From the NCBI GenBank assembly GCA_049515535.1, contig JBEKTZ010000003.1, positions 310,001 to 337,272 of the forward strand: a stretch of 27,272 bases of DNA. Reading direction: 5' to 3'. The notes beneath the pieces were generated by a model. The model was not told the DNA's origin, did not search any database, and saw only the letters and a program-made list of their open reading frames with translations. This document shows, piece after piece, positions 2,071-27,272 of this stretch. The number at the start of each line of letters is the position of its first letter. Within the stretch, counting starts at the first letter, position 1. Source of the DNA: Candidatus Aminicenantales bacterium (GTDB lineage: Bacteria; Acidobacteriota; Aminicenantia; Aminicenantales; UBA4085). The translations under genes and the position numbers were made by a program.

Positions 2071-3080
2071 GCGACGTAAAGATATTTCCTTATTCCCCGG
2101 CCGACGATGGGGCCGCCCTGGCCCTGGAGGAGAAGTGCGTCCAGGGGACATCGCTGAAAATTTCGTTCCGTCGGCCGGATTTTCGCGCCCGTTCCGAGCT
2201 CTATGAGAACGCCCGGATTTACTGCGCCCGCAGGGATGGCGAACTCATTGGAATCATCGCCGGGGCGCTGAAAGACGTGCGGCTTCACGGCGAGATGGTT
2301 CGAGCTCTCTATTTTTATGACCTCCGCGTGCATCCCGCTTTCAGGAACGGGGGGGTCGGGAAAAAGCTGACGAACGCCGTCATCGACGACCTGGGAAAGA
2401 ACGCGGATTGCCTCTACACTCTGGTCAACGGCGAAAACGCTAAAGCCATGAACCTCGCCCGCCGCAATTTCGCCCCAAAAGCCGTCATTCCGCTGACCTA
2501 CGCCCTGTTTCCTGTTTACAAGAAGCGAAAAGAGCGGGAAGCGTGGCGGTTCGAAAAAGCGGCGGATCTCCACGCGTCTTATGAGCGGGCCCATCCCGAT
2601 CTGGAATTCAGGCCCCTTTTCCGTGAAGAGAGACTGAGCGGCTACGTGACGAGCTTGATCCTGGAAAAACGGAATGGAACGGGCTGTTCGATCTGGACGA
2701 ATGAGAATATCTTGGCTGAACAGGTGACCCAAATCCCTTCCCGGATGAGGAGGCTACGGGCTCTGTCCCGCGCGCTCAGCCCGTTCGTCAGGCTGCCTCA
2801 TATTCCGGCCGACAATGAGATCATCCGGAGCTGGTTCCTGTTCGATTTCCACGCGGAAGGCCCCCAGGAATTGAGAAGCCTTCTCGCGGCCGTCAACAAT
2901 CTGGCCCTCGCCCGGGGCCGGACGTATTTTTATATCCTCGTCCGGGACGGCGATCCGCTTCTCGGAACTCTTCGGGCAGCGGGGCCGAGGTTTATCACCT
3001 TTCCGTACCGCTTATTGGCCAAGGGAAGGGTTTTCCCCCTTGAATCGGATGATTTTTATATCGATATCCGGGATTTATAA
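2067..3080 (+). CDS. GNAT family N-acyltransferase (N-terminal GNAT domain plus C-terminal extension)
   Basis: YFYDLRVHPAFRNGGVGKKL acetyl-CoA-binding motif A and N..A motif (NGENAKAM). ATGA overlap with the DUF3419 gene. Confidence 0.8.
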   Translation: MSDVKIFPYSPADDGAALALEEKCVQGTSLKISFRRPDFRARSELYENARIYCARRDGELIGIIAGALKDVRLHGEMVRALYFYDLRVHPAFRNGGVGKKLTNAVIDDLGKNADCLYTLVNGENAKAMNLARRNFAPKAVIPLTYALFPVYKKRKEREAWRFEKAADLHASYERAHPDLEFRPLFREERLSGYVTSLILEKRNGTGCSIWTNENILAEQVTQIPSRMRRLRALSRALSPFVRLPHIPADNEIIRSWFLFDFHAEGPQELRSLLAAVNNLALARGRTYFYILVRDGDPLLGTLRAAGPRFITFPYRLLAKGRVFPLESDDFYIDIRDL

Positions 3081-3237
3081 AAGAGCAAAGGGGGAAAAGA
3101 GCCCTTCCCCGGCGGACGGGGCCCCGGGCTTTACCCGGGGGTCCACTTCCGCCGCGAAGGCTCGTCCCTTGACGAAACGCCGTCTCCCGAAGCGATGGCA
3201 TTCATCGCCGACTGGATCCTGAATCTGCCAAGACCGC

Positions 3238-3885
3238 TCACCGGCGGAGCCAGATTTTCAGAGAGCCGAGGATGAAAAGAAACGACAGCCCGACCAGGAC
3301 GATCCCCAGCCAAAAATAAACCCGCCTCAAAACGTGAACGGGGAAAAAATGTTTTACTCGTCTGAGAAAGAACGCCAAGGCCGTCAGATAGCTTCCCAGC
3401 CCCAAGCCGCCAGCCAGAATGAACAGGAGCGAGGATTTCGGGGTGAAGGATTCGACCACCCCGAGTTTTTCGGCGATGCCCTTCCCGATCAACCAGATGA
3501 GAATCATGGGCGGGTTGGAAAAGGCCAGCGAAAACCCGGTTAGGTATGACAGCCGGCCCCGGCGCAGCAGGGCATGATTGAAATCCACATTGTGAGGCTT
3601 GGCGCTTTCCTTGAACGTGAAGCAGGCCAGCACCCACAGCAATAACCCTCCGGCCAGGTAAAACCAAGCGACCACGGACGGGTGGGACAGAAAAGGGGCG
3701 ATGCCGAAAAAGGCCACGAAGCCGTAGACCATGTCCGAGCTGGCCGAACCCATCGCGACCAGGACGGCGGCCCTCATGTGGTTGTTCAGGGCGCGTTTGG
3801 CGACCTCGATTTGGGAGCCGCCGATGGGGATGGCCGTCACGAATCCCAAAACGAAGGCCAGGAGAACCAGAAAAAGGAGTTTCAT
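3238..3885 (-). CDS. LysE/RhtB family translocator
   Basis: 215 aa, about 6 hydrophobic segments, GFVTAIPIG and TGFSLAFSNP motifs typical of LysE. Overlaps the GT9 stop (ATGA). Confidence 0.75.
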   Translation of the reverse strand: MKLLFLVLLAFVLGFVTAIPIGGSQIEVAKRALNNHMRAAVLVAMGSASSDMVYGFVAFFGIAPFLSHPSVVAWFYLAGGLLLWVLACFTFKESAKPHNVDFNHALLRRGRLSYLTGFSLAFSNPPMILIWLIGKGIAEKLGVVESFTPKSSLLFILAGGLGLGSYLTALAFFLRRVKHFFPVHVLRRVYFWLGIVLVGLSFLFILGSLKIWLRR

Positions 3886-6411: not shown

Positions 6412-8574
6412 TCATCTTGTCCCGAAATACCAGACGAACTTGAGCATGGCCACGGTCTTGGTCAATCGCCAATTTTGGTGCGGGTCGAGGCTATCGCCGA
6501 ACTGGTTGAGGACGAAATAGAGCACGGCGCCCGGCTTGGGAATCCAGGTGACGCGGAAGTTGAAGAGGATCTTGTTCTCGTCGTTGTTCCACTGGACGAA
6601 GACCGCCCCGAAGAGCTTGGGAGTCAAGGAAAAATTCATCCGCGTGACGAGTTCGTCGATGGCGAATCCGCCGTCCGGAAGACGGATGTCGGTCCGTTTG
6701 TAGGCCAGGTTCAGCGCGTAATATTTGTTCGGTTTCCAGGTCGCTTGGGCATCCCACTCCGTGCTCGAGCCATCGTAGAATTTTCCCCAATTGACGCCGG
6801 CGTCGAAGACGAGCGGCCGTCCGTCGAAGGTGGAAAATTGGATTTCTCCCCGGTTCGTCCAATAGCGCCCGGAGCGGATGACATGACCTTCGCGAATCTC
6901 GAAATCTTCGGTCAGGTCCTCGGCGTTGCGCTGGATGTTGATTTCCAGGTTCTCGCCGCTCTTGAAAAACACAGCCAACGGACGGAATTCCATATAGACG
7001 GACTGCATTCTGTGCGTCACTTCGTCAATGTAATAATTGATTTCGATCGGCTTGAATTGGAGCTTTTGGATCCAAGGCAAGAAGTCCGGCCGGGGGTTGA
7101 TCCGCCATTTCGCCGTATATATCTGGTAGCTCGTCCGGCTCAGGAACCCGACCTCCGGGTTGAAATTCTTACCCGCTCGCTCCCAGGAGGCGCTGAGCTC
7201 GATCAGGTCGTTAGGGTAGTTAAAAAACAGGCGTTGGGCGCTGCCGGTCGCCGCCTCCCGATCGGACGTATAGGTCGCAGCGAACGCGCCGCCGAACTGG
7301 AAATTCTTGTTTCCGAATAGCTTGGACGTCGAGTAGAGTGCGTCCACGCCGCCCGTCCCATTGAACCGACCCGATTGGGCGGCCCCGATTGCGAGCGCGC
7401 CGATCGATGATTGCTCTCCCAGGTCCTGTTTATAGCGGACGAGAGAAAAATTCGTCGCTTTGGCCATGTCGGTATCCTGGCTCTGGAGGACCATTATCCC
7501 GAGCGTCGTTCCTCCCATTTTGCCGAGAAAACGGGCGCCTCCGAGAATGGGTGTTTGCTCCCCCTGGTAAATGCCGATCCGGCGGCTGTAAAACGGCCGG
7601 GCCTTCCCGAGAGGGAAGTCGAAGAAATTCTGGGCTTCGAGGTAGAATTGCCTCTTTTCCGGCAGAGAGATGGAAAAGCGGGTCAAGTTGACGATCATCT
7701 GGTCGGATTCGACCTGGGCGAAATCCGGGTGGACCGTGAAATCGAGCTTGACGGTCGGGTTGATCAGATAGTTGAAATCCAGCCCGATGCTGCCGACGGT
7801 CGTCGCCGGCATTTGGATCGCCTTTTCCGCCCCGGCGAGGGCATAGGGGCGGAATTCGAATATCCTCATCCGGGTCAGGGCCTGCAATCCGGTCAGCGTC
7901 CCCGCCCGGTTGACCTGCGCCAGCATGGAATCCCGCGACCAGCCCTGCCAGAGGACCTGCTCGCGCTTGCGGCGGATGTTCCGCTCGAAATTGATTCCCC
8001 AGGTCTGTTCGTTCGCCGCGCTGAATTTCAATGTCGAGAAAGGGATCTTGATCTCCGCGAACCAGCCTTGGTCCGTCCGCCTGGCCGCGACGTACCAGAC
8101 CCCGTTCCAGTCGGCGTTCAGTTTCCGGCTATTGTCCGTGACAAGGGCGTCGTACTGCGCGCCGTTGGGGTTGATGATGAAGAGATAGGCATTCCGCTTA
8201 TCTCCATACGTGTCCAGGGCGATTTCGAAATTGTCTTCGTTCCCATATTCGAAGTCCCACTTCATTTTCTGGGCGATGATTTTGTCCGGTTCGGCGTCGA
8301 AGCACCAGACGCCGATAAAAAGTTCGGTCTTGGAATAGAGAACAGCGACCTCGGTTCTTTCCGTGGCCGGCTGGTTTTCGTTGAGCTCGCGCTGGGTGAA
8401 GTTGGAGATGCGCGGAGCCGTGGCCCAGTCCGCCTCGTCCATGATCCCGTCCAAGCGGATCGCGGACTTGGCGGGGACGGCTTTGAGCGTATCGGGCCGG
8501 CTGTGTTGGGATTGCAGCGGGAGGGCGAGGGCGAGAAGGCCGATCACGGCGGCCGCTTTCTTAACGAAGATCAC
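6412..8574 (-). CDS. DUF5916 / CBM9-like domain outer-membrane protein
   Basis: Signal peptide; IRLDG.MDEADW CBM9-like start; GWFAEIKIPFSTLKF, WGINFER, HPDFAQVESD, PEKRQFYLE, FYSRRIG; aromatic C-terminus. Start placed at GTG 8574 (AAGGAG 6 nt upstream) rather than ATG 8610. Confidence 0.8.
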   Translation of the reverse strand: MIFVKKAAAVIGLLALALPLQSQHSRPDTLKAVPAKSAIRLDGIMDEADWATAPRISNFTQRELNENQPATERTEVAVLYSKTELFIGVWCFDAEPDKIIAQKMKWDFEYGNEDNFEIALDTYGDKRNAYLFIINPNGAQYDALVTDNSRKLNADWNGVWYVAARRTDQGWFAEIKIPFSTLKFSAANEQTWGINFERNIRRKREQVLWQGWSRDSMLAQVNRAGTLTGLQALTRMRIFEFRPYALAGAEKAIQMPATTVGSIGLDFNYLINPTVKLDFTVHPDFAQVESDQMIVNLTRFSISLPEKRQFYLEAQNFFDFPLGKARPFYSRRIGIYQGEQTPILGGARFLGKMGGTTLGIMVLQSQDTDMAKATNFSLVRYKQDLGEQSSIGALAIGAAQSGRFNGTGGVDALYSTSKLFGNKNFQFGGAFAATYTSDREAATGSAQRLFFNYPNDLIELSASWERAGKNFNPEVGFLSRTSYQIYTAKWRINPRPDFLPWIQKLQFKPIEINYYIDEVTHRMQSVYMEFRPLAVFFKSGENLEINIQRNAEDLTEDFEIREGHVIRSGRYWTNRGEIQFSTFDGRPLVFDAGVNWGKFYDGSSTEWDAQATWKPNKYYALNLAYKRTDIRLPDGGFAIDELVTRMNFSLTPKLFGAVFVQWNNDENKILFNFRVTWIPKPGAVLYFVLNQFGDSLDPHQNWRLTKTVAMLKFVWYFGTR

Positions 8575-19364: not shown

Positions 19365-20896
<1,532 letters not shown>

Positions 20897-21324: not shown

Positions 21325-24330
<3,006 letters not shown>

Positions 24331-24387
24331 AAGGTTTTTTCAGGCAAAAAATGCTATCATCGATTTGGATTTGGTATTGTATTTAAA

Positions 24388-24505
24388 TCCCGGCGACCAT
24401 GACGAAGGGGAAACGCCCGTTCCCATTCCGAACACGGAAGCTAAGCCCTTAGGTGCCGATGGTACTGCCAGGGGTGCCTGGTGGGAGAGTAGGATATTGC
24501 CGGGT
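24388..24505 (+). rRNA. rrf: 5S ribosomal RNA
   Basis: CCCGGCG..TGCCGGG terminal helix, CCCATTCCGAACAC loop C, GCCGATGGTAC, GAGAGTAGG; followed by a T-tract. Confidence 0.96.
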
Positions 24506-24734
24506 TTTTTTATTTTCAGGCGCAATGGCGCGGTACGTATCCCGGGACTATTGGTTTTCCCGGGGGATGCGGTTCGCATCTAGGATTTTTTTTCTTTGCT
24601 CGAGACGGATAAAGGACAAAGGGGCACAGGCCCCGACTGTTGGCGGCATACTCCTCTCCTTTATTTCGATCGATATCTTTTTAACGGACCGTTCCGGAGG
24701 CTTCCGGACGGATCCATCGTCAAAGGAGACGAGT

Positions 24735-25022
24735 TTGAACATTTATGTTGGCAACCTTTCTTTCAACGTGACGGAATCCGACCTCCGGGAGGCCTTCCAG
24801 GCCTTCGGAACGGTCGAGAAATCCGCGGTGATCAGTGACAAGACGACGGGCCAGTCGAGAGGCTTCGGCTTCGTCGAAATGCCGAACAAGGACGAGGCGA
24901 CGAAGGCCATCGGCGCTCTGAACGGCCGCGAACTCAAGGGCCGGGCCCTGAAGGTCAACGAAGCTCAAGCCCGCACGGATCGGCCGCGGACAGGCGGATT
25001 CGGCGGCGGCCGTCGCTTCTGA
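24735..25022 (+). CDS. RRM (RNP-1) RNA-binding protein, cold-inducible Rbp-like
   Basis: TTG start after AAGGAG; RNP2 IYVGNL, RNP1 RGFGFVEM, Gly/Arg-rich tail. Confidence 0.93.
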   Translation: MNIYVGNLSFNVTESDLREAFQAFGTVEKSAVISDKTTGQSRGFGFVEMPNKDEATKAIGALNGRELKGRALKVNEAQARTDRPRTGGFGGGRRF

Positions 25023-25076
25023 TCGGGTTTTAGCGCCCCGGATCGCGTCGATCCGGAAAATTCTCTGAAACATCGA

Positions 25077-25109
25077 GGGGATGGTTCCCCGTGAACCATC
25101 CCCTTTTTT
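25077..25109 (+). terminator. Intrinsic terminator after the RRM gene
   Basis: GGGGATGGTTC-cccgt-GAACCATCCCC followed by TTTTTT. Confidence 0.85.
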
Positions 25110-25167
25110 GTTTTTTTGGGGGAATTTCCTGTCGAATTGCGTAGCGGCGAAATTTCTCCATGCGGCT

Positions 25168-26073
25168 TCAGCCAAAGGCTTTTTCCATTGCTGCGCGGAT
25201 GGAGTCTTCCTTCAGCGAAATATAACGATTAATCGAAGAAAGGCTTTTATGCCCCATTGCATTTGAAACCAGAACCGCGTCTTTTGTGGCGCGATAAAGA
25301 CGAGTGGCGAAGCCGGCGCGGAAAGAATGCAGCGTAAGCTTCGGCCGCAAGCCGGCAGCCTTTTTCCAGCGTTCGAAACGCAGGTGCACCTCCCGCGCGC
25401 TCAGGGGGCGGGAAAAGTTCCGCCCAGGAAAGAGAAACGGGGAGCGGGAGTGTTCTTTCCGAGCAGCACGTTGGATAAGGTATTCTGCGAGTATCAACTT
25501 CAGTTTGCTTGGAATGGCCCGGTACTCGCCGCCGGTCGTCTTGGTTTTGGAATACCAGACTCGTTTTTCGCTGAGATCAAGATCGTCGATCCGCAAAGCT
25601 AATGCCTCGTTCCGGCGCACCCCGGAGAAGGCATAAAAAGCGAAAAGCGCCTCATCGCGTCGCGCAAGGAAGGAGTATTCTCGCCGGATAGCATCGAACA
25701 ATAGCGATAGCTCGTTCTCTGAAATCGGCGGCGTTGGCAGGTTGACCACTTTAGCGAGCCGGAGATCGGCCGCCGGGTTTCTCGGGACCCTTCCGGTCTC
25801 CACCGCCCAGGAGAAGAAGGTTCTTACTACGCTACGGATCTGATTCATCGAAACGCCGGAGCGCGGCATCTCGCGAGGATAGCCTTCCTCAAGTTGAATC
25901 AATGCCTGGGTGAGAGTGTTGCCGGTCACCTTGTGGAGGAGAAGGTCTCCGATTAATTCCTCGAGCAGCTCGAGTTTCTTGGAGTAGCTCTCCAATGTTG
26001 AACCCGCCCTCCCCGATCCCTTCAAGCTACGGATGAAGTCTCGGGAAGCGGCAGCTAATTTCCGGTGATTCAT
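25168..26073 (-). CDS. Tyrosine recombinase/integrase (XerC/D-sized, ~301 aa from ATG 26073)
   Basis: Core-binding N-domain (STLESY); catalytic R (SGVRRNE), K (SKTK), HxxR (LHSFR), H (MGH) and Y (NRY). The start is uncertain because the frame is open to 26295. Confidence 0.9.
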   Translation of the reverse strand: MNHRKLAAASRDFIRSLKGSGRAGSTLESYSKKLELLEELIGDLLLHKVTGNTLTQALIQLEEGYPREMPRSGVSMNQIRSVVRTFFSWAVETGRVPRNPAADLRLAKVVNLPTPPISENELSLLFDAIRREYSFLARRDEALFAFYAFSGVRRNEALALRIDDLDLSEKRVWYSKTKTTGGEYRAIPSKLKLILAEYLIQRAARKEHSRSPFLFPGRNFSRPLSAREVHLRFERWKKAAGLRPKLTLHSFRAGFATRLYRATKDAVLVSNAMGHKSLSSINRYISLKEDSIRAAMEKAFG

Positions 26074-26241
26074 CCCACTTTCATGGGCGTGATCCTTATT
26101 CGGCTCTGGGGAAAAATTCGATTTGAGCCTCAATGGTTTCCCATCTGAGGCAAACTTTGAGGAGACCATGAAGAATTTCCTTTCATCTTTTTCATTAAGG
26201 GAGATCGCGAAAATCTTTTTCAGGCCGTAAAAAGGCCTCTG

Positions 26242-26445
26242 TTTGCGACTTTTTTCCGGGCTTTTGGCATTTTCGACGATTTGTAAAGTCGGCAAAGGAC
26301 CTGCGGGAGCCCTTTTCCGAGGGTATTTTCGACATCTTCGCTTTCCGACATTTTCCCGTTGTCGGAAAGTCGTTGATATTCTTGTTCTTAAGCCGATGTC
26401 GCAAGCGCCCGCCAGTCTCTCGTCGCAAATCGATTATCGAAAAAA
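26242..26445. repeat. Cluster of TTTNCGAC(A)-like motifs in both orientations, including a perfect inverted repeat at 26341-26369
   Basis: Copies at 26242, 26270, 26326 and 26342; inverted copies at 26288, 26360, 26396 and 26422; CTTTCCGACA-N9-TGTCGGAAAG. Confidence 0.6.
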
Positions 26446-26532
26446 ACGAGATGCTACATAAGTTGTTATTTCTTTAGCGTTGTAATGATAGATCAAATTG
26501 AAGCGACTAGGAGATCCTCATTGATTCGAGGT

Positions 26533-26568
26533 ATATCCTAGTCTTTATTTTCTGGGAAGTCTAGGAAT
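26533..26568. repeat. 36-bp direct repeat copy 1, putative recombination site
   Basis: ATATCCTAGTCTTTATTTTCTGGGAAGTCTAGGAAT, identical to 27110-27145; inverted arms TCCTAGTCTT / AAGTCTAGGA. Confidence 0.95.
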
Positions 26569-26570
26569 TT

Positions 26571-26594
26571 AGGGGTTATGTTTTTATAACCCCT
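26571..26594 (-). terminator. Hairpin immediately after the cassette gene stop (terminator-like, no clear U-tract)
   Basis: AGGGGTTAT-gttttt-ATAACCCCT between the stop codon at 26596 and repeat copy 1. Confidence 0.5.
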
Positions 26595-26595
26595 C

Positions 26596-27102
26596 TTAAT
26601 AATCAACAAAAGTTCCGTCCTTCTGTAACATGAGCCGAGACATAGTGGAAGCGCTAGTTGCGATTGCAAATCCCTGCATTGTGTTGACCATAATATTGGT
26701 CAATTCTTTGGTAAATCCTGTTTCTACCACAGTTATTACAAATTTGCAACCCACAAGTTCAGTTCCCCTATCTACGCCATCATATCGAGCTCGATCGTCT
26801 GCCAAAATACAATAGGTCCCCGCAGCATATTTTTTACTGAATCTACTCTCAAAATTGTAGTTGTCGATCCTTGTGAAATCGTATACAAAATCACGATTTC
26901 CGCCACCATATAAATCAAAAAACACGGTTGGGGTATTAGGCAGGTTATTCACATTCTTTACTTCAACTCTCGTGTACGTAAATTTCAAGGTGTAATAACT
27001 GGCTGGTTCGGGCGGTTGGGGCGTTGTGGGGGCTTTGTCGCAGACAGCAATCATCAGCACGGCTAAAATCATCAAAATTAAGACAAACAGTTTCTTTCTC
27101 AT
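26596..27102 (-). CDS. Hypothetical exported protein, probable lipoprotein (cassette cargo)
   Basis: MRKK plus hydrophobic core plus IAVC (atypical lipobox), Pro/Thr linker and a beta-rich domain; markedly AT-richer than the core genes. Confidence 0.75.
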   Translation of the reverse strand: MRKKLFVLILMILAVLMIAVCDKAPTTPQPPEPASYYTLKFTYTRVEVKNVNNLPNTPTVFFDLYGGGNRDFVYDFTRIDNYNFESRFSKKYAAGTYCILADDRARYDGVDRGTELVGCKFVITVVETGFTKELTNIMVNTMQGFAIATSASTMSRLMLQKDGTFVDY

Positions 27103-27109
27103 TCTATTA

Positions 27110-27145
27110 ATATCCTAGTCTTTATTTTCTGGGAAGTCTAGGAAT
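27110..27145. repeat. 36-bp direct repeat copy 2, putative recombination site
   Basis: Identical to 26533-26568; flanks diverge immediately on both sides. Confidence 0.95.
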
Positions 27146-27272
27146 CAAATTCAAGATAATTGGTGAAGAACGTCGCGTTCGCACCCCCGAGGTCAAAGAC
27201 AACCAAATTATTGACTCCGTCGATGACGTCGACATAGAGCTTGTGCGCAGTTCCGGCAGCGCTGGCTGCGGG
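27138..27272 (-). CDS. C-terminus of a hypothetical protein (next putative cassette; 5' truncated by window)
   Basis: Open frame from the window edge: PAASAAGTAHKLYVDVIDGVNNLVVFDLGGANATFFTNYLEFDS*. The TAG stop at 27140-27138 lies inside repeat copy 2. Not in the supplied ORF track. Confidence 0.55.
   Translation of the reverse strand, partial: PAASAAGTAHKLYVDVIDGVNNLVVFDLGGANATFFTNYLEFDS

Follow-up and report, generated by a model that had tools for sequence, protein, structure and literature searches.

A candidate single-gene cassette array bounded by a 36-bp repeat beside an Xer-like tyrosine recombinase gene in Candidatus Aminicenantales

The window considered here, a 27,272-nucleotide stretch of DNA from a Candidatus Aminicenantales bacterium, makes up the final 27,272 bases of one contig (C3) of a 3.45-Mb genome assembly (G000; 32 contigs, 94% complete). 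Beyond an RRM-domain gene, on the minus strand, it contains a tyrosine recombinase gene, an AT-rich leader and a lipoprotein gene held between two copies of a 36-bp repeat (R), a combination for which we propose a cassette-like organisation. The locus was compared with that of a related genome (G012; array-bearing sequence L017), with the public contigs L018 and L020–L024, and with Logan contigs of the sediment runs X1–X4. C1, C2, C3, C10, C13 and C23 denote contigs of G000.

The recombinase gene occupies 25168..26169 (minus strand) and encodes an Xer-like tyrosine recombinase of 333 residues, as assigned from Pfam, NCBIfam and PDB matches and from a conserved ATG. The frame is open over 25168–26295 (−), a TTG at 26295 setting its upper limit; the conserved ATG, which comes with a ribosome-binding site (RBS), corresponds to M43 (window position 26169), and this start codon is kept in 5 loci. 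The open reading frame (ORF) matches Pfam Phage_integrase at 4.8e-27, and residues R227/R228, K250/K252, H323, R326, H349 and Y358 are invariant with respect to the G012 protein (70% identity). The best NCBIfam scores, obtained for XerC (108 bits, cut-off 335), archaeal XerA (103) and XerD (95), are all far under the cut-offs. Model NF011946 scores 21.9 against a cut-off of 435, while the integron-integrase model TIGR02249 reaches 33.6 bits against a cut-off of 265, aligning only residues 306–358 (the last catalytic motifs). A PDB search returns XerH (5jjv, 1e-13, the best match), XerA and XerD, and zero IntI chains at E ≤ 1e-3. Judging from these sequence comparisons, we read the protein as an Xer-like 'simple' tyrosine recombinase of a clade so far undescribed. 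A close homologue was found in 1 of the 60 related genomes searched (G012, also the only one among 26 other genomes of the same family), and none at E ≤ 1e-40 in 400 further genomes sampled from the phylum. The protein database contains 39 homologues: nine at 63–100% identity, the window's own protein included, and a second tier at 36–48% identity that bears the database names of Nitrospirae/Nitrospiraceae metagenome-assembled genome (MAG) proteins. In the viral contigs searched, neither a recombinase relative nor any match to a degenerate R pattern came up.

R is the 36-nt sequence ATATCCTAGTCTTTATTTTCTGGGAAGTCTAGGAAT, of which the window holds exactly two copies 577 bp apart: the recombinase-proximal copy 1 (26533..26568, −) and the distal copy 2 (27110..27145, −). 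The calculated chance of a repeated 36-mer in 27 kb is ~1e-13. No third copy occurs in the whole G000 assembly with up to 9 mismatches allowed, and in the G012 genome R is found just three times, all within the array. Between the two copies lies a 541-bp cassette (26569..27109, −; 40% GC) consisting of a 7-nt leader, one lipoprotein gene and a 3' hairpin. The gene, lipo168 (26596–27102, −; 168 residues, from the ORF list), has its ATG at 27102, separated from R copy 2 by 7 nt (27103–27109); a further 27 nt (26569–26595) separate its stop codon (26596–26598) from R copy 1 and enclose the hairpin (26571–26594, −13.3 kcal/mol). Past copy 2, a minus-strand ORF (27138–27272), open at the window end, stops inside the repeat (..NYLEF|DS*); it represents the truncated 3' end of a gene that we call Y (27146..27272, −; 54% GC), identical to the reverse complement of C13:1-127. 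On the other side, the proximal R is joined to the recombinase start by the 363-nt AT-rich leader (26170..26532, −; 43% GC), which by analogy with integrons may play the part of the attI-side region. The leader is 91–94% identical in L021–L024 and, against G012, nearly unalignable save for conserved blocks. One of these, the 20-nt TTCGAnAATCGATTTGCGAC (26422..26441, −), agrees at 19 of 20 positions in the G000-type loci and the G012 leader, in surroundings that are not conserved; it contains a TCGA-N3-TCGA palindrome and is a candidate protein-binding site. An Rfam scan gave gathering scores only for ribosomal RNA (rRNA) and tRNA genes, R and the leader having no family at E ≤ 1; a weak sX14 match lies at 25037–25108.

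A sequence-only reading of the window had named most of these elements, and the exact direct repeat, the 577-bp unit bracketing exactly one gene with spacings of 7 and 27 nt, the full R-K-HxxR-H-Y set of the recombinase and the co-oriented ORF ending in the second site are all confirmed. The inverted arms that it described within R do exist in G000 (10-bp arms with one mismatch, separated by 11 nt; folding as DNA gives −4.7 kcal/mol with z −2.5), but the dyad is weaker than described and out of register in G012. Its remark that only two sites are visible because the window ends needs correcting, in that the window end is also the contig end and the assembly has no third copy at up to 9 mismatches.

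R stands at a fixed place upstream of the leader and recombinase gene, in direct orientation, in 7 of the 7 relative loci for which DNA was obtained, with recombinase identities ranging from 70% (G012) to 100%. L018 and L020 match the window at 100% identity and break off where C3 does; the recombinases of L021, L022, L023 and L024 are 92%, 90%, 89% and 88% identical to that of the window. R is present twice in the window, L018, L020 and L023, once in L021 and in L024 (where the contig is cut), three times in G012 and four times in L022, with at most 2 mismatches in the L021–L024 copies. All 17 copies in these eight sequences lie on the strand of the recombinase gene, which excludes a shufflon or inversion switch. 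The G012 repeat shares 24/36 positions with R, including GACT..C.CAGAAAA....GACT.GGA, beside a leader that is almost unalignable. R variants are array-specific (a T at position 8 occurs in both L023 copies and in L021), which fits homogenisation by recombination. Positions 4–5, 8 and 31 are those at which R varies naturally.

The DNA between the R copies differs from locus to locus. Between conserved flanks, the order is orf285, R, leader in L021 and in an X2 contig (0 cassettes), versus orf291, R, cassette A, R, cassette B, R', leader in G012 (two cassettes). In L021 the 285-residue ORF ends on the first base of the sole R, after which leader and recombinase gene follow directly; its G012 homologue, an ORF of 291 residues, ends within the first of three R copies. 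The three G012 repeats, 36–38 bp in length and spaced 576 and 586 bp, bracket two lipoprotein genes (166 and 167 residues). L022 holds three cassettes (intervals of 725, 763 and 1294 bp), and L023 one complete (901 bp) and one partial cassette. Each R-to-R interval (577, 576, 586, 725, 763, 901 and 1294 bp) contains one ORF, and a variable array of 0 to 3 single-gene cassettes thus accompanies the integrase-type gene in the 7 loci, as is typical of integrons.

The edges of these differences are precise. Blastn homology between the window and L021–L023 covers 26568 to 25149 only, with none left of R, so that it stops exactly at the outer edge of the proximal copy. The 3.5-kb X2 contig matches 25149–26568 and then continues into the orf285-like flank, and an X3 contig also stops matching at 26568; cassette stretches are uncovered in the X2–X4 contigs, which is not evidence of absence. 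At the distal copy, the outer edge coincides with the point of divergence between C3 and C13. The cassette genes differ even though the recombinase and leader DNA is 91–94% identical to that of the window: searching G000 by tblastn with the L022 and L023 cassette proteins yields a sole match, the second L022 cassette, at 41% identity to lipo168. Cassettes are hence turned over in close relatives at the exact edges of a repeat that is confined to this locus. L018 (3331 nt, corresponding to window positions 23934–27264) is filed in a Sedimentisphaerales MAG, probably a binning error in one record; G012 is labelled Candidatus Aminicenantes.

The cassettes share a common build. Every cassette ORF starts with an N-terminal signal peptide or lipobox, as judged by inspection, and in five cassettes R ends 0–25 nt ahead of the RBS or start codon, which places the site directly upstream of surface-protein genes with a recombinase gene adjacent, a feature of Vpma-type loci. 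At 10 of 10 cassette-type 3' ends, a strong GC-rich hairpin (−13 to −33 kcal/mol), usually with a T-run, lies 0–5 nt before R. The two chromosomal ORFs abutting the first R have no hairpin of that kind; in L022, a hairpin with a T-run lies ahead of even the first R. The GC content of the cassettes is 38–45%, lower than in the recombinase gene (53%) and in the window (57%). In the loci seen, cargo appears restricted to signal-peptide envelope proteins. The lipo168 family comprises lipo168, the two G012 genes and the second L022 cassette, and has 63 representatives among 1.84 billion clusters. The first L022 cassette encodes a different lipoprotein, and the third a 397-residue secreted protein whose N-terminal domain recurs in a database protein with a lipo168-type C-terminal domain. 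The complete L023 cassette gives a weak outer-membrane beta-barrel match (28.0 bits, cut-off 28.7), and the partial ORF of L024 ends ...ARISF. When the lipo168 family profile was compared by hhalign with the other cassettes, probabilities were 0.1 for the third L022 cassette and 27 for the partial L023 cassette; the 99% match to the first L022 cassette comes mostly from a leader shared with the second. An AlphaFold2 model of lipo168 (predicted local distance difference test score 92) is a beta-sandwich, for which Foldseek found nothing in PDB at E ≤ 1e-3; in VIA-align the best Z is 6.1, to generic Ig/FN3-like sandwiches.

Some further features of L022 were observed. The leader shared by its first two cassettes spans ~150 nt (2982–3130 and 3735–3880) between R and the signal-peptide start and is open in frame, the second cassette being without a clear start codon. 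Left of the four-R array, positions 1–2604 (−) encode a protein of at least 868 residues with a SIR2-like domain (PF13289, 2.8e-25) at 38% GC. SIR2-like domains occur in anti-phage defence proteins.

Two conserved flanks enclosing n+1 sharp sites and n unrelated single-gene units of foreign composition, with n ranging from 0 to 3, form the pattern of repeated site-specific circle insertion, one that neither duplication nor a shared promoter would be expected to give. It is quite probable that R delimits genuine cassettes that arose by recombination of one kind or another. As to the agent, we incline, with moderate confidence, to an R-directed cassette system run by the adjacent Xer-like recombinase. 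In this model R would be a site-specific recombination site, and the DNA between copies would represent mobile single-gene cassettes, each made of an RBS, one signal-peptide gene (lipoprotein or outer-membrane type) and a terminator-like hairpin. Cassettes would enter as circles and leave by excision at a hotspot ~360 nt upstream of the dedicated recombinase gene, whose product is the likely catalyst. Each insertion would copy R, building up the order R-cassette-R-cassette-R-leader-recombinase with all genes pointing toward the recombinase gene, and the outcome would be a set of envelope proteins that is stored, swapped and reordered. The platform would consequently combine a non-IntI enzyme and a conserved 36-bp site with integron-like logic on a small mobile island.

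Several observations weigh against this proposal. The register of the dyad differs in the 70% relative G012, the common part being only the inner CnCAG-N10-CTnGG, and R does not look like a conventional tyrosine-recombinase core site. The two G012 cassettes are tandem copies, 90–94% identical, as ordinary duplication would yield, and 4 of the 9 cassettes other than the Y unit belong to one protein family. Scope is narrow, with one recombinase clade in a narrow lineage (1/26 other family genomes and 0/400 phylum genomes), and no excised circle, empty-site read or deletion joint was seen in runs X1–X4, four of 24 available as Logan contigs, a format that does not reveal circles, low-frequency excision joints or the ends of transcripts. 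Finally, the recombinase gene lies on an island whose flanking repeat is unrelated in sequence to R, and the enzyme may serve the island ends, R, or both.

This island is best defined in G012, where a 7.47-kb segment (L017 648–8098) is absent from G000 contig C2, whose two flanking genes sit 148 nt apart. The segment contains, in order, a gene for a fusion of reverse transcriptase and Cas1 (RT-Cas1), orf129, orf291, the array and the recombinase gene. A direct repeat of 19 bp (629–647 and 8099–8117, 17/19 identical), overlapping the 3' end of a mazG-like gene, borders the segment on both sides; the end of the recombinase gene, at 8020, is 79 nt away from the right-hand copy. G012 thus displays an insertion with respect to a related genome, a direct repeat at a gene 3' end and a terminal integrase gene. 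Integrative islands that carry their own integrase classically look like this, and the platform is hence itself mobile. It also means that the association between R and the recombinase could be mere linkage on one island. The recombinase may be only the integrase of the ~7.5-kb island, with cassettes exchanged by another recombinase in trans or through RecA-dependent flanking homology (a 'minimal mobile element'). In keeping with this alternative, G000 encodes at least four more tyrosine-recombinase-like genes, the island has other neighbours in G000 than in L021, and the G012 cassettes are near-duplicates. Homologous exchange nevertheless fails to explain a new exact, sharp-edged R with every unrelated gene. 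Furthermore, R is like nothing else in G000 (94% complete) or G012, which makes an origin from a chromosomal dif-type site of the housekeeping Xer system improbable, and the distance from R to the recombinase gene is constant with a conserved block between. Dual function also has a precedent, since tyrosine recombinases such as HvsR can have dual site specificity according to one report (PMC2268961). We therefore consider a mere island integrase unlikely, and retain the R-directed system as the preferred model.

In the G000 lineage the island ends lie at C10:157165 and L021:819 on the left and at window position 25149 and L021:7147 on the right; flanks differ between G000 and L021, and a search at the ends revealed no flanking repeat ≥9 nt long in either. 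The 19 nt past the recombinase stop (25149..25167, −) are the last stretch common to L021, L022 and L023 by blastn and form the right end of the conserved island. In the window, the neighbouring rRNA operon comprises the 16S (19365–20896), 23S (21325–24330) and 5S (24389–24505) genes with two tRNA genes between 16S and 23S, followed by the RRM-domain gene (24744–25022). In L021, the 5S gene and only the last ~260 nt of the 23S gene (298–414 and 647–904) lie directly beside the left end of the island, together with a paralogue of the RRM gene (1–234), whereas in G000 the full operon and the RRM gene are on the other side of the recombinase gene. This placement suggests that the island inserted near, or rearranged, the 3' end of an rRNA operon.

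The RT-Cas1 fusion (~1170 residues; L017 686–4225 in G012, and L021 842–4342) lies ~1.3 kb from the array and consists, by inspection, of a reverse-transcriptase part with a YADD motif and a Cas1-like C-terminal part. The conserved ORFs of 129 and 285/291 residues that follow have no Pfam match. Given 36-bp repeats near RT-Cas1, an array of clustered regularly interspaced short palindromic repeats (CRISPR) was considered for R and rejected: the intervals are 538–1258 bp, each with an ORF, and not spacers of ~30–50 bp. No CRISPR array was seen in L017 1–12000. A 31-nt inverted repeat (GAAATCGGGGACAGGTACCGAATTCT...) is present in G012 (L017 8929–9024), and a similar copy adjoins the right side of the L022 island (~7190–7250). 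Both may belong to a small palindromic element dispersed in these genomes.

The position of R directly ahead of genes raises the question of whether it is instead a cis-regulatory element (promoter, operator or 5' untranslated region signal) of an envelope contingency family and the recombinase operon, the array having arisen by duplication, divergence and horizontal replacement. The spacing of 0–25 nt to RBS or start in five cassettes would suit such a role, as would the paralogy of 4 of the 9 cassettes and the terminator-like hairpin of each cassette, given that each would then need its own promoter. G000-type R also contains a weak sigma-70-like pair (TAGACT-17-TAGGAT, 8/12 by inspection), and direct GACT repeats 18 bp apart as in some regulator sites. 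However, the −10-like hexamer is lost in G012 (TGGGAA), and a promoter and terminator consensus scan of 24900–27272 found no sigma-70-like site within R, with 3 promoter-like hits compared to 2.0 expected. No Rfam family was matched, and the proximal R has ~360 nt without a gene behind it. A lipo168 paralogue on contig C1 (71% identity) shares the coding sequence and the 3' hairpin with the cassette, nucleotide similarity starting 5 nt past where R would end, and it has no R on either side. R is therefore not the upstream region proper to that gene family, and goes with the locus, not with the cassette gene family. A regulatory element also leaves unexplained the 36/36 identity, the sharp edges between unrelated genes and the differences of 0 to 3 cassettes. 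We judge this explanation quite unlikely compared to R as a recombination site. The C1 paralogue is located in a region of 41% GC (C1:322900–328000, L003) with an ORF resembling a helix-turn-helix protein, a number of ORFs for small membrane proteins and one of 715 or more residues; this region may be another mobile one.

The distal end of the window bears on how the array continues. The last 127 nt of C3 recur in reverse complement at the start of C13 (127/127), an assembly-graph overlap with k=127, and the shared stretch starts exactly at the outer edge of R copy 2. Gene Y runs on in C13 to 330 residues in all, and is cut by R in C3. It has no homologue at E ≤ 1e-10 in 30 relatives, and a single partial homologue in the protein database (P0106, 387 residues, Sedimentisphaerales label). 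With two copies only in the G000 assembly and a contig that ends 127 nt past the second, a one-off insertion duplication or an assembly artefact might be suspected; this is contradicted by the same two-copy structure in L018 and L020 and by arrays in five further loci and in the X2 and X3 contigs, which makes its probability close to negligible.

Additional R junctions were detected in k=31 contigs of X1, the probable source sample, giving R a third left and a third right neighbour. The junction contigs represent the C13 path, an orf285-like ORF end abutting R, and R followed by a gene start region; 28 nt of that region recur identically on C23, at a site with no R in front of it. The ends of C23 and C10 fall inside similar gene starts, which we tentatively take to be those of Y paralogues. 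On C10, an 80-nt remnant of the island left end, including the last 18 codons only of RT-Cas1 (C10:157191–157244), precedes a gene start like that of C23. These junctions fit an array with three R copies in the source organism, in the order orf285-like ORF, R, Y-derived unit, R, lipo168, R and recombinase gene, and fit equally well with C10 joining the window end. A more far-reaching version of the model can be built on them, namely an independently evolved 'second integron' on a mobile island that captures, stores and reorders cassettes via a 36-bp double-strand site, diversifies the envelope and recruits pieces of resident genes. The truncated Y at R, identical to the intact gene, and the X1 junction of R before a Y-type start would then represent a cassette caught forming. 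We put this version forward as tentative, and hold its full extent to be doubtful. One X1 contig (depth 27) joins 26072 to 27114, fusing the first 32 nt of R and one base to recombinase codon 75 and thereby skipping the leader and the N-terminal 74 codons; the recombinase side comprises 36 nt with one mismatch. It may stem from a deletion variant, or from another module in the sample that has no leader.

How the cassettes would be transcribed leads to a further possibility. Transcription could proceed by read-through from the ORF running into the first R, reaching the first cassette only as each ends in a hairpin, or from a promoter within R. With one promoter before the first R, the recombinase could reshuffle which gene comes first, giving phase or antigenic variation in the manner of the Mycoplasma Vpma and Vsa surface switches; this would be a functional variant of the R-directed system and does not exclude it. 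The parts list is indeed that of the Mycoplasma agalactiae vpma locus, for which the published report describes an adjacent Xer-type recombinase gene, sites in the 5' untranslated region right before lipoprotein starts, terminator structures behind genes and a single promoter (PMC2268961). Moreover, orf285/291 and the gene Y fragment enter the first R without a hairpin, and the cargo consists entirely of envelope proteins. Direct copies of R, on the other hand, would delete or transpose and not invert; the wholly different gene sets of close relatives imply gain and loss from outside, beyond reshuffling of a fixed set; and in L022 a hairpin with a T-run precedes the first R. A surface switch of this type is possible, but on balance we doubt it as an account of the array.

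The comparison of loci bears out what the sequence-only reading had proposed to look for: homologous recombinases flank such arrays in 7 of 7 loci (1 to 4 copies of R), unrelated single genes lie between the R copies of relatives, the empty site exists as one R with no cassette in L021 and the X2 contig, and the recombinase falls with Xer and not IntI by NCBIfam and PDB matches. Its suggestion of an integron-analogous array that captures or shuffles single genes is supported by cassette turnover at R, while the cargo seen, limited to the envelope, gives no sign that genes of any kind are captured. Its exclusion of a shufflon agrees with the uniformly direct copies, and that of an integron proper with the low TIGR02249 score and with the finding of neither RYYYAAC nor GTTRRRY on either strand of 26401–27272.

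If the R-directed model is correct, cassette-array architecture would have evolved more than once, here with an unrelated branch of tyrosine recombinases and a simple 36-bp site. A 333-aa enzyme and a short defined site would form a tractable pair for biochemistry and genome engineering, and the locus would reveal a route to surface-protein variation in an uncultured sediment lineage. The origin of integrons and the origin of cassettes are still open questions, and the truncated gene Y abutting R may inform how cassettes are born. Among well-characterised platforms, integrons are to our knowledge alone in accumulating arrays of single-gene cassettes that lack promoters. A search of full-text literature, with subscription journals outside its scope, returned no non-IntI cassette array of such a kind and no integrons in Aminicenantes.

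Among known systems, pdif modules of Acinetobacter plasmids and integrative mobile elements exploiting Xer (IMEX) at dif resemble the present arrays in being small modules without a recombinase gene, bounded by short Xer-family sites and able to accumulate in tandem. The pdif modules depend on dif-like 28-bp sites in inverted orientation and on housekeeping XerCD, whereas the sites here are direct, 36 bp long and unlike the rest of the genome (up to 9 mismatches, 94% complete), with a dedicated recombinase gene adjacent. Tandem accretion of cis-mobilisable elements and integrative and conjugative elements (CIME/ICE), or of the staphylococcal cassette chromosome (SCC), likewise leads to element-site-element-site arrays by repeated insertion, and the present platform does sit on an island with a 19-bp repeat. 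Accretion leaves copies of the island's own att between the elements; R, in contrast, has no sequence relation to the 19-bp repeat of the present island, and its units are single genes measuring 0.5–1.3 kb.

Integrons share with this locus a sedentary recombinase gene and a hotspot with a variable array of co-oriented, mostly single-gene cassettes with structured ends, the number and content of which vary among close relatives, and an empty platform occurs (here in L021 and the X2 contig). Integron attC sites are defined by structure and variable in sequence, with RYYYAAC ... GTTRRRY core pairs, and IntI proteins form the integron-integrase subfamily with an extra domain. The recombinase described here is Xer-like and far below IntI thresholds, its site is a conserved 36-bp sequence, and the cassettes are placed upstream of the recombinase gene, toward which they point, with envelope cargo only so far. 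The Mycoplasma vpma, vsp and vsa loci, with the recombinases Xer1, Mbr and HvsR, share the adjacent recombinase, the site before the surface-lipoprotein start and the terminators after genes (PMC2268961); those systems invert DNA within a fixed gene set, while here sites and genes are direct and genes are turned over. The nearest functional counterparts are integrons for the logic of the array, and the Mycoplasma vpma/Xer1 loci for the placement of the site, the terminators and the adjacent recombinase.

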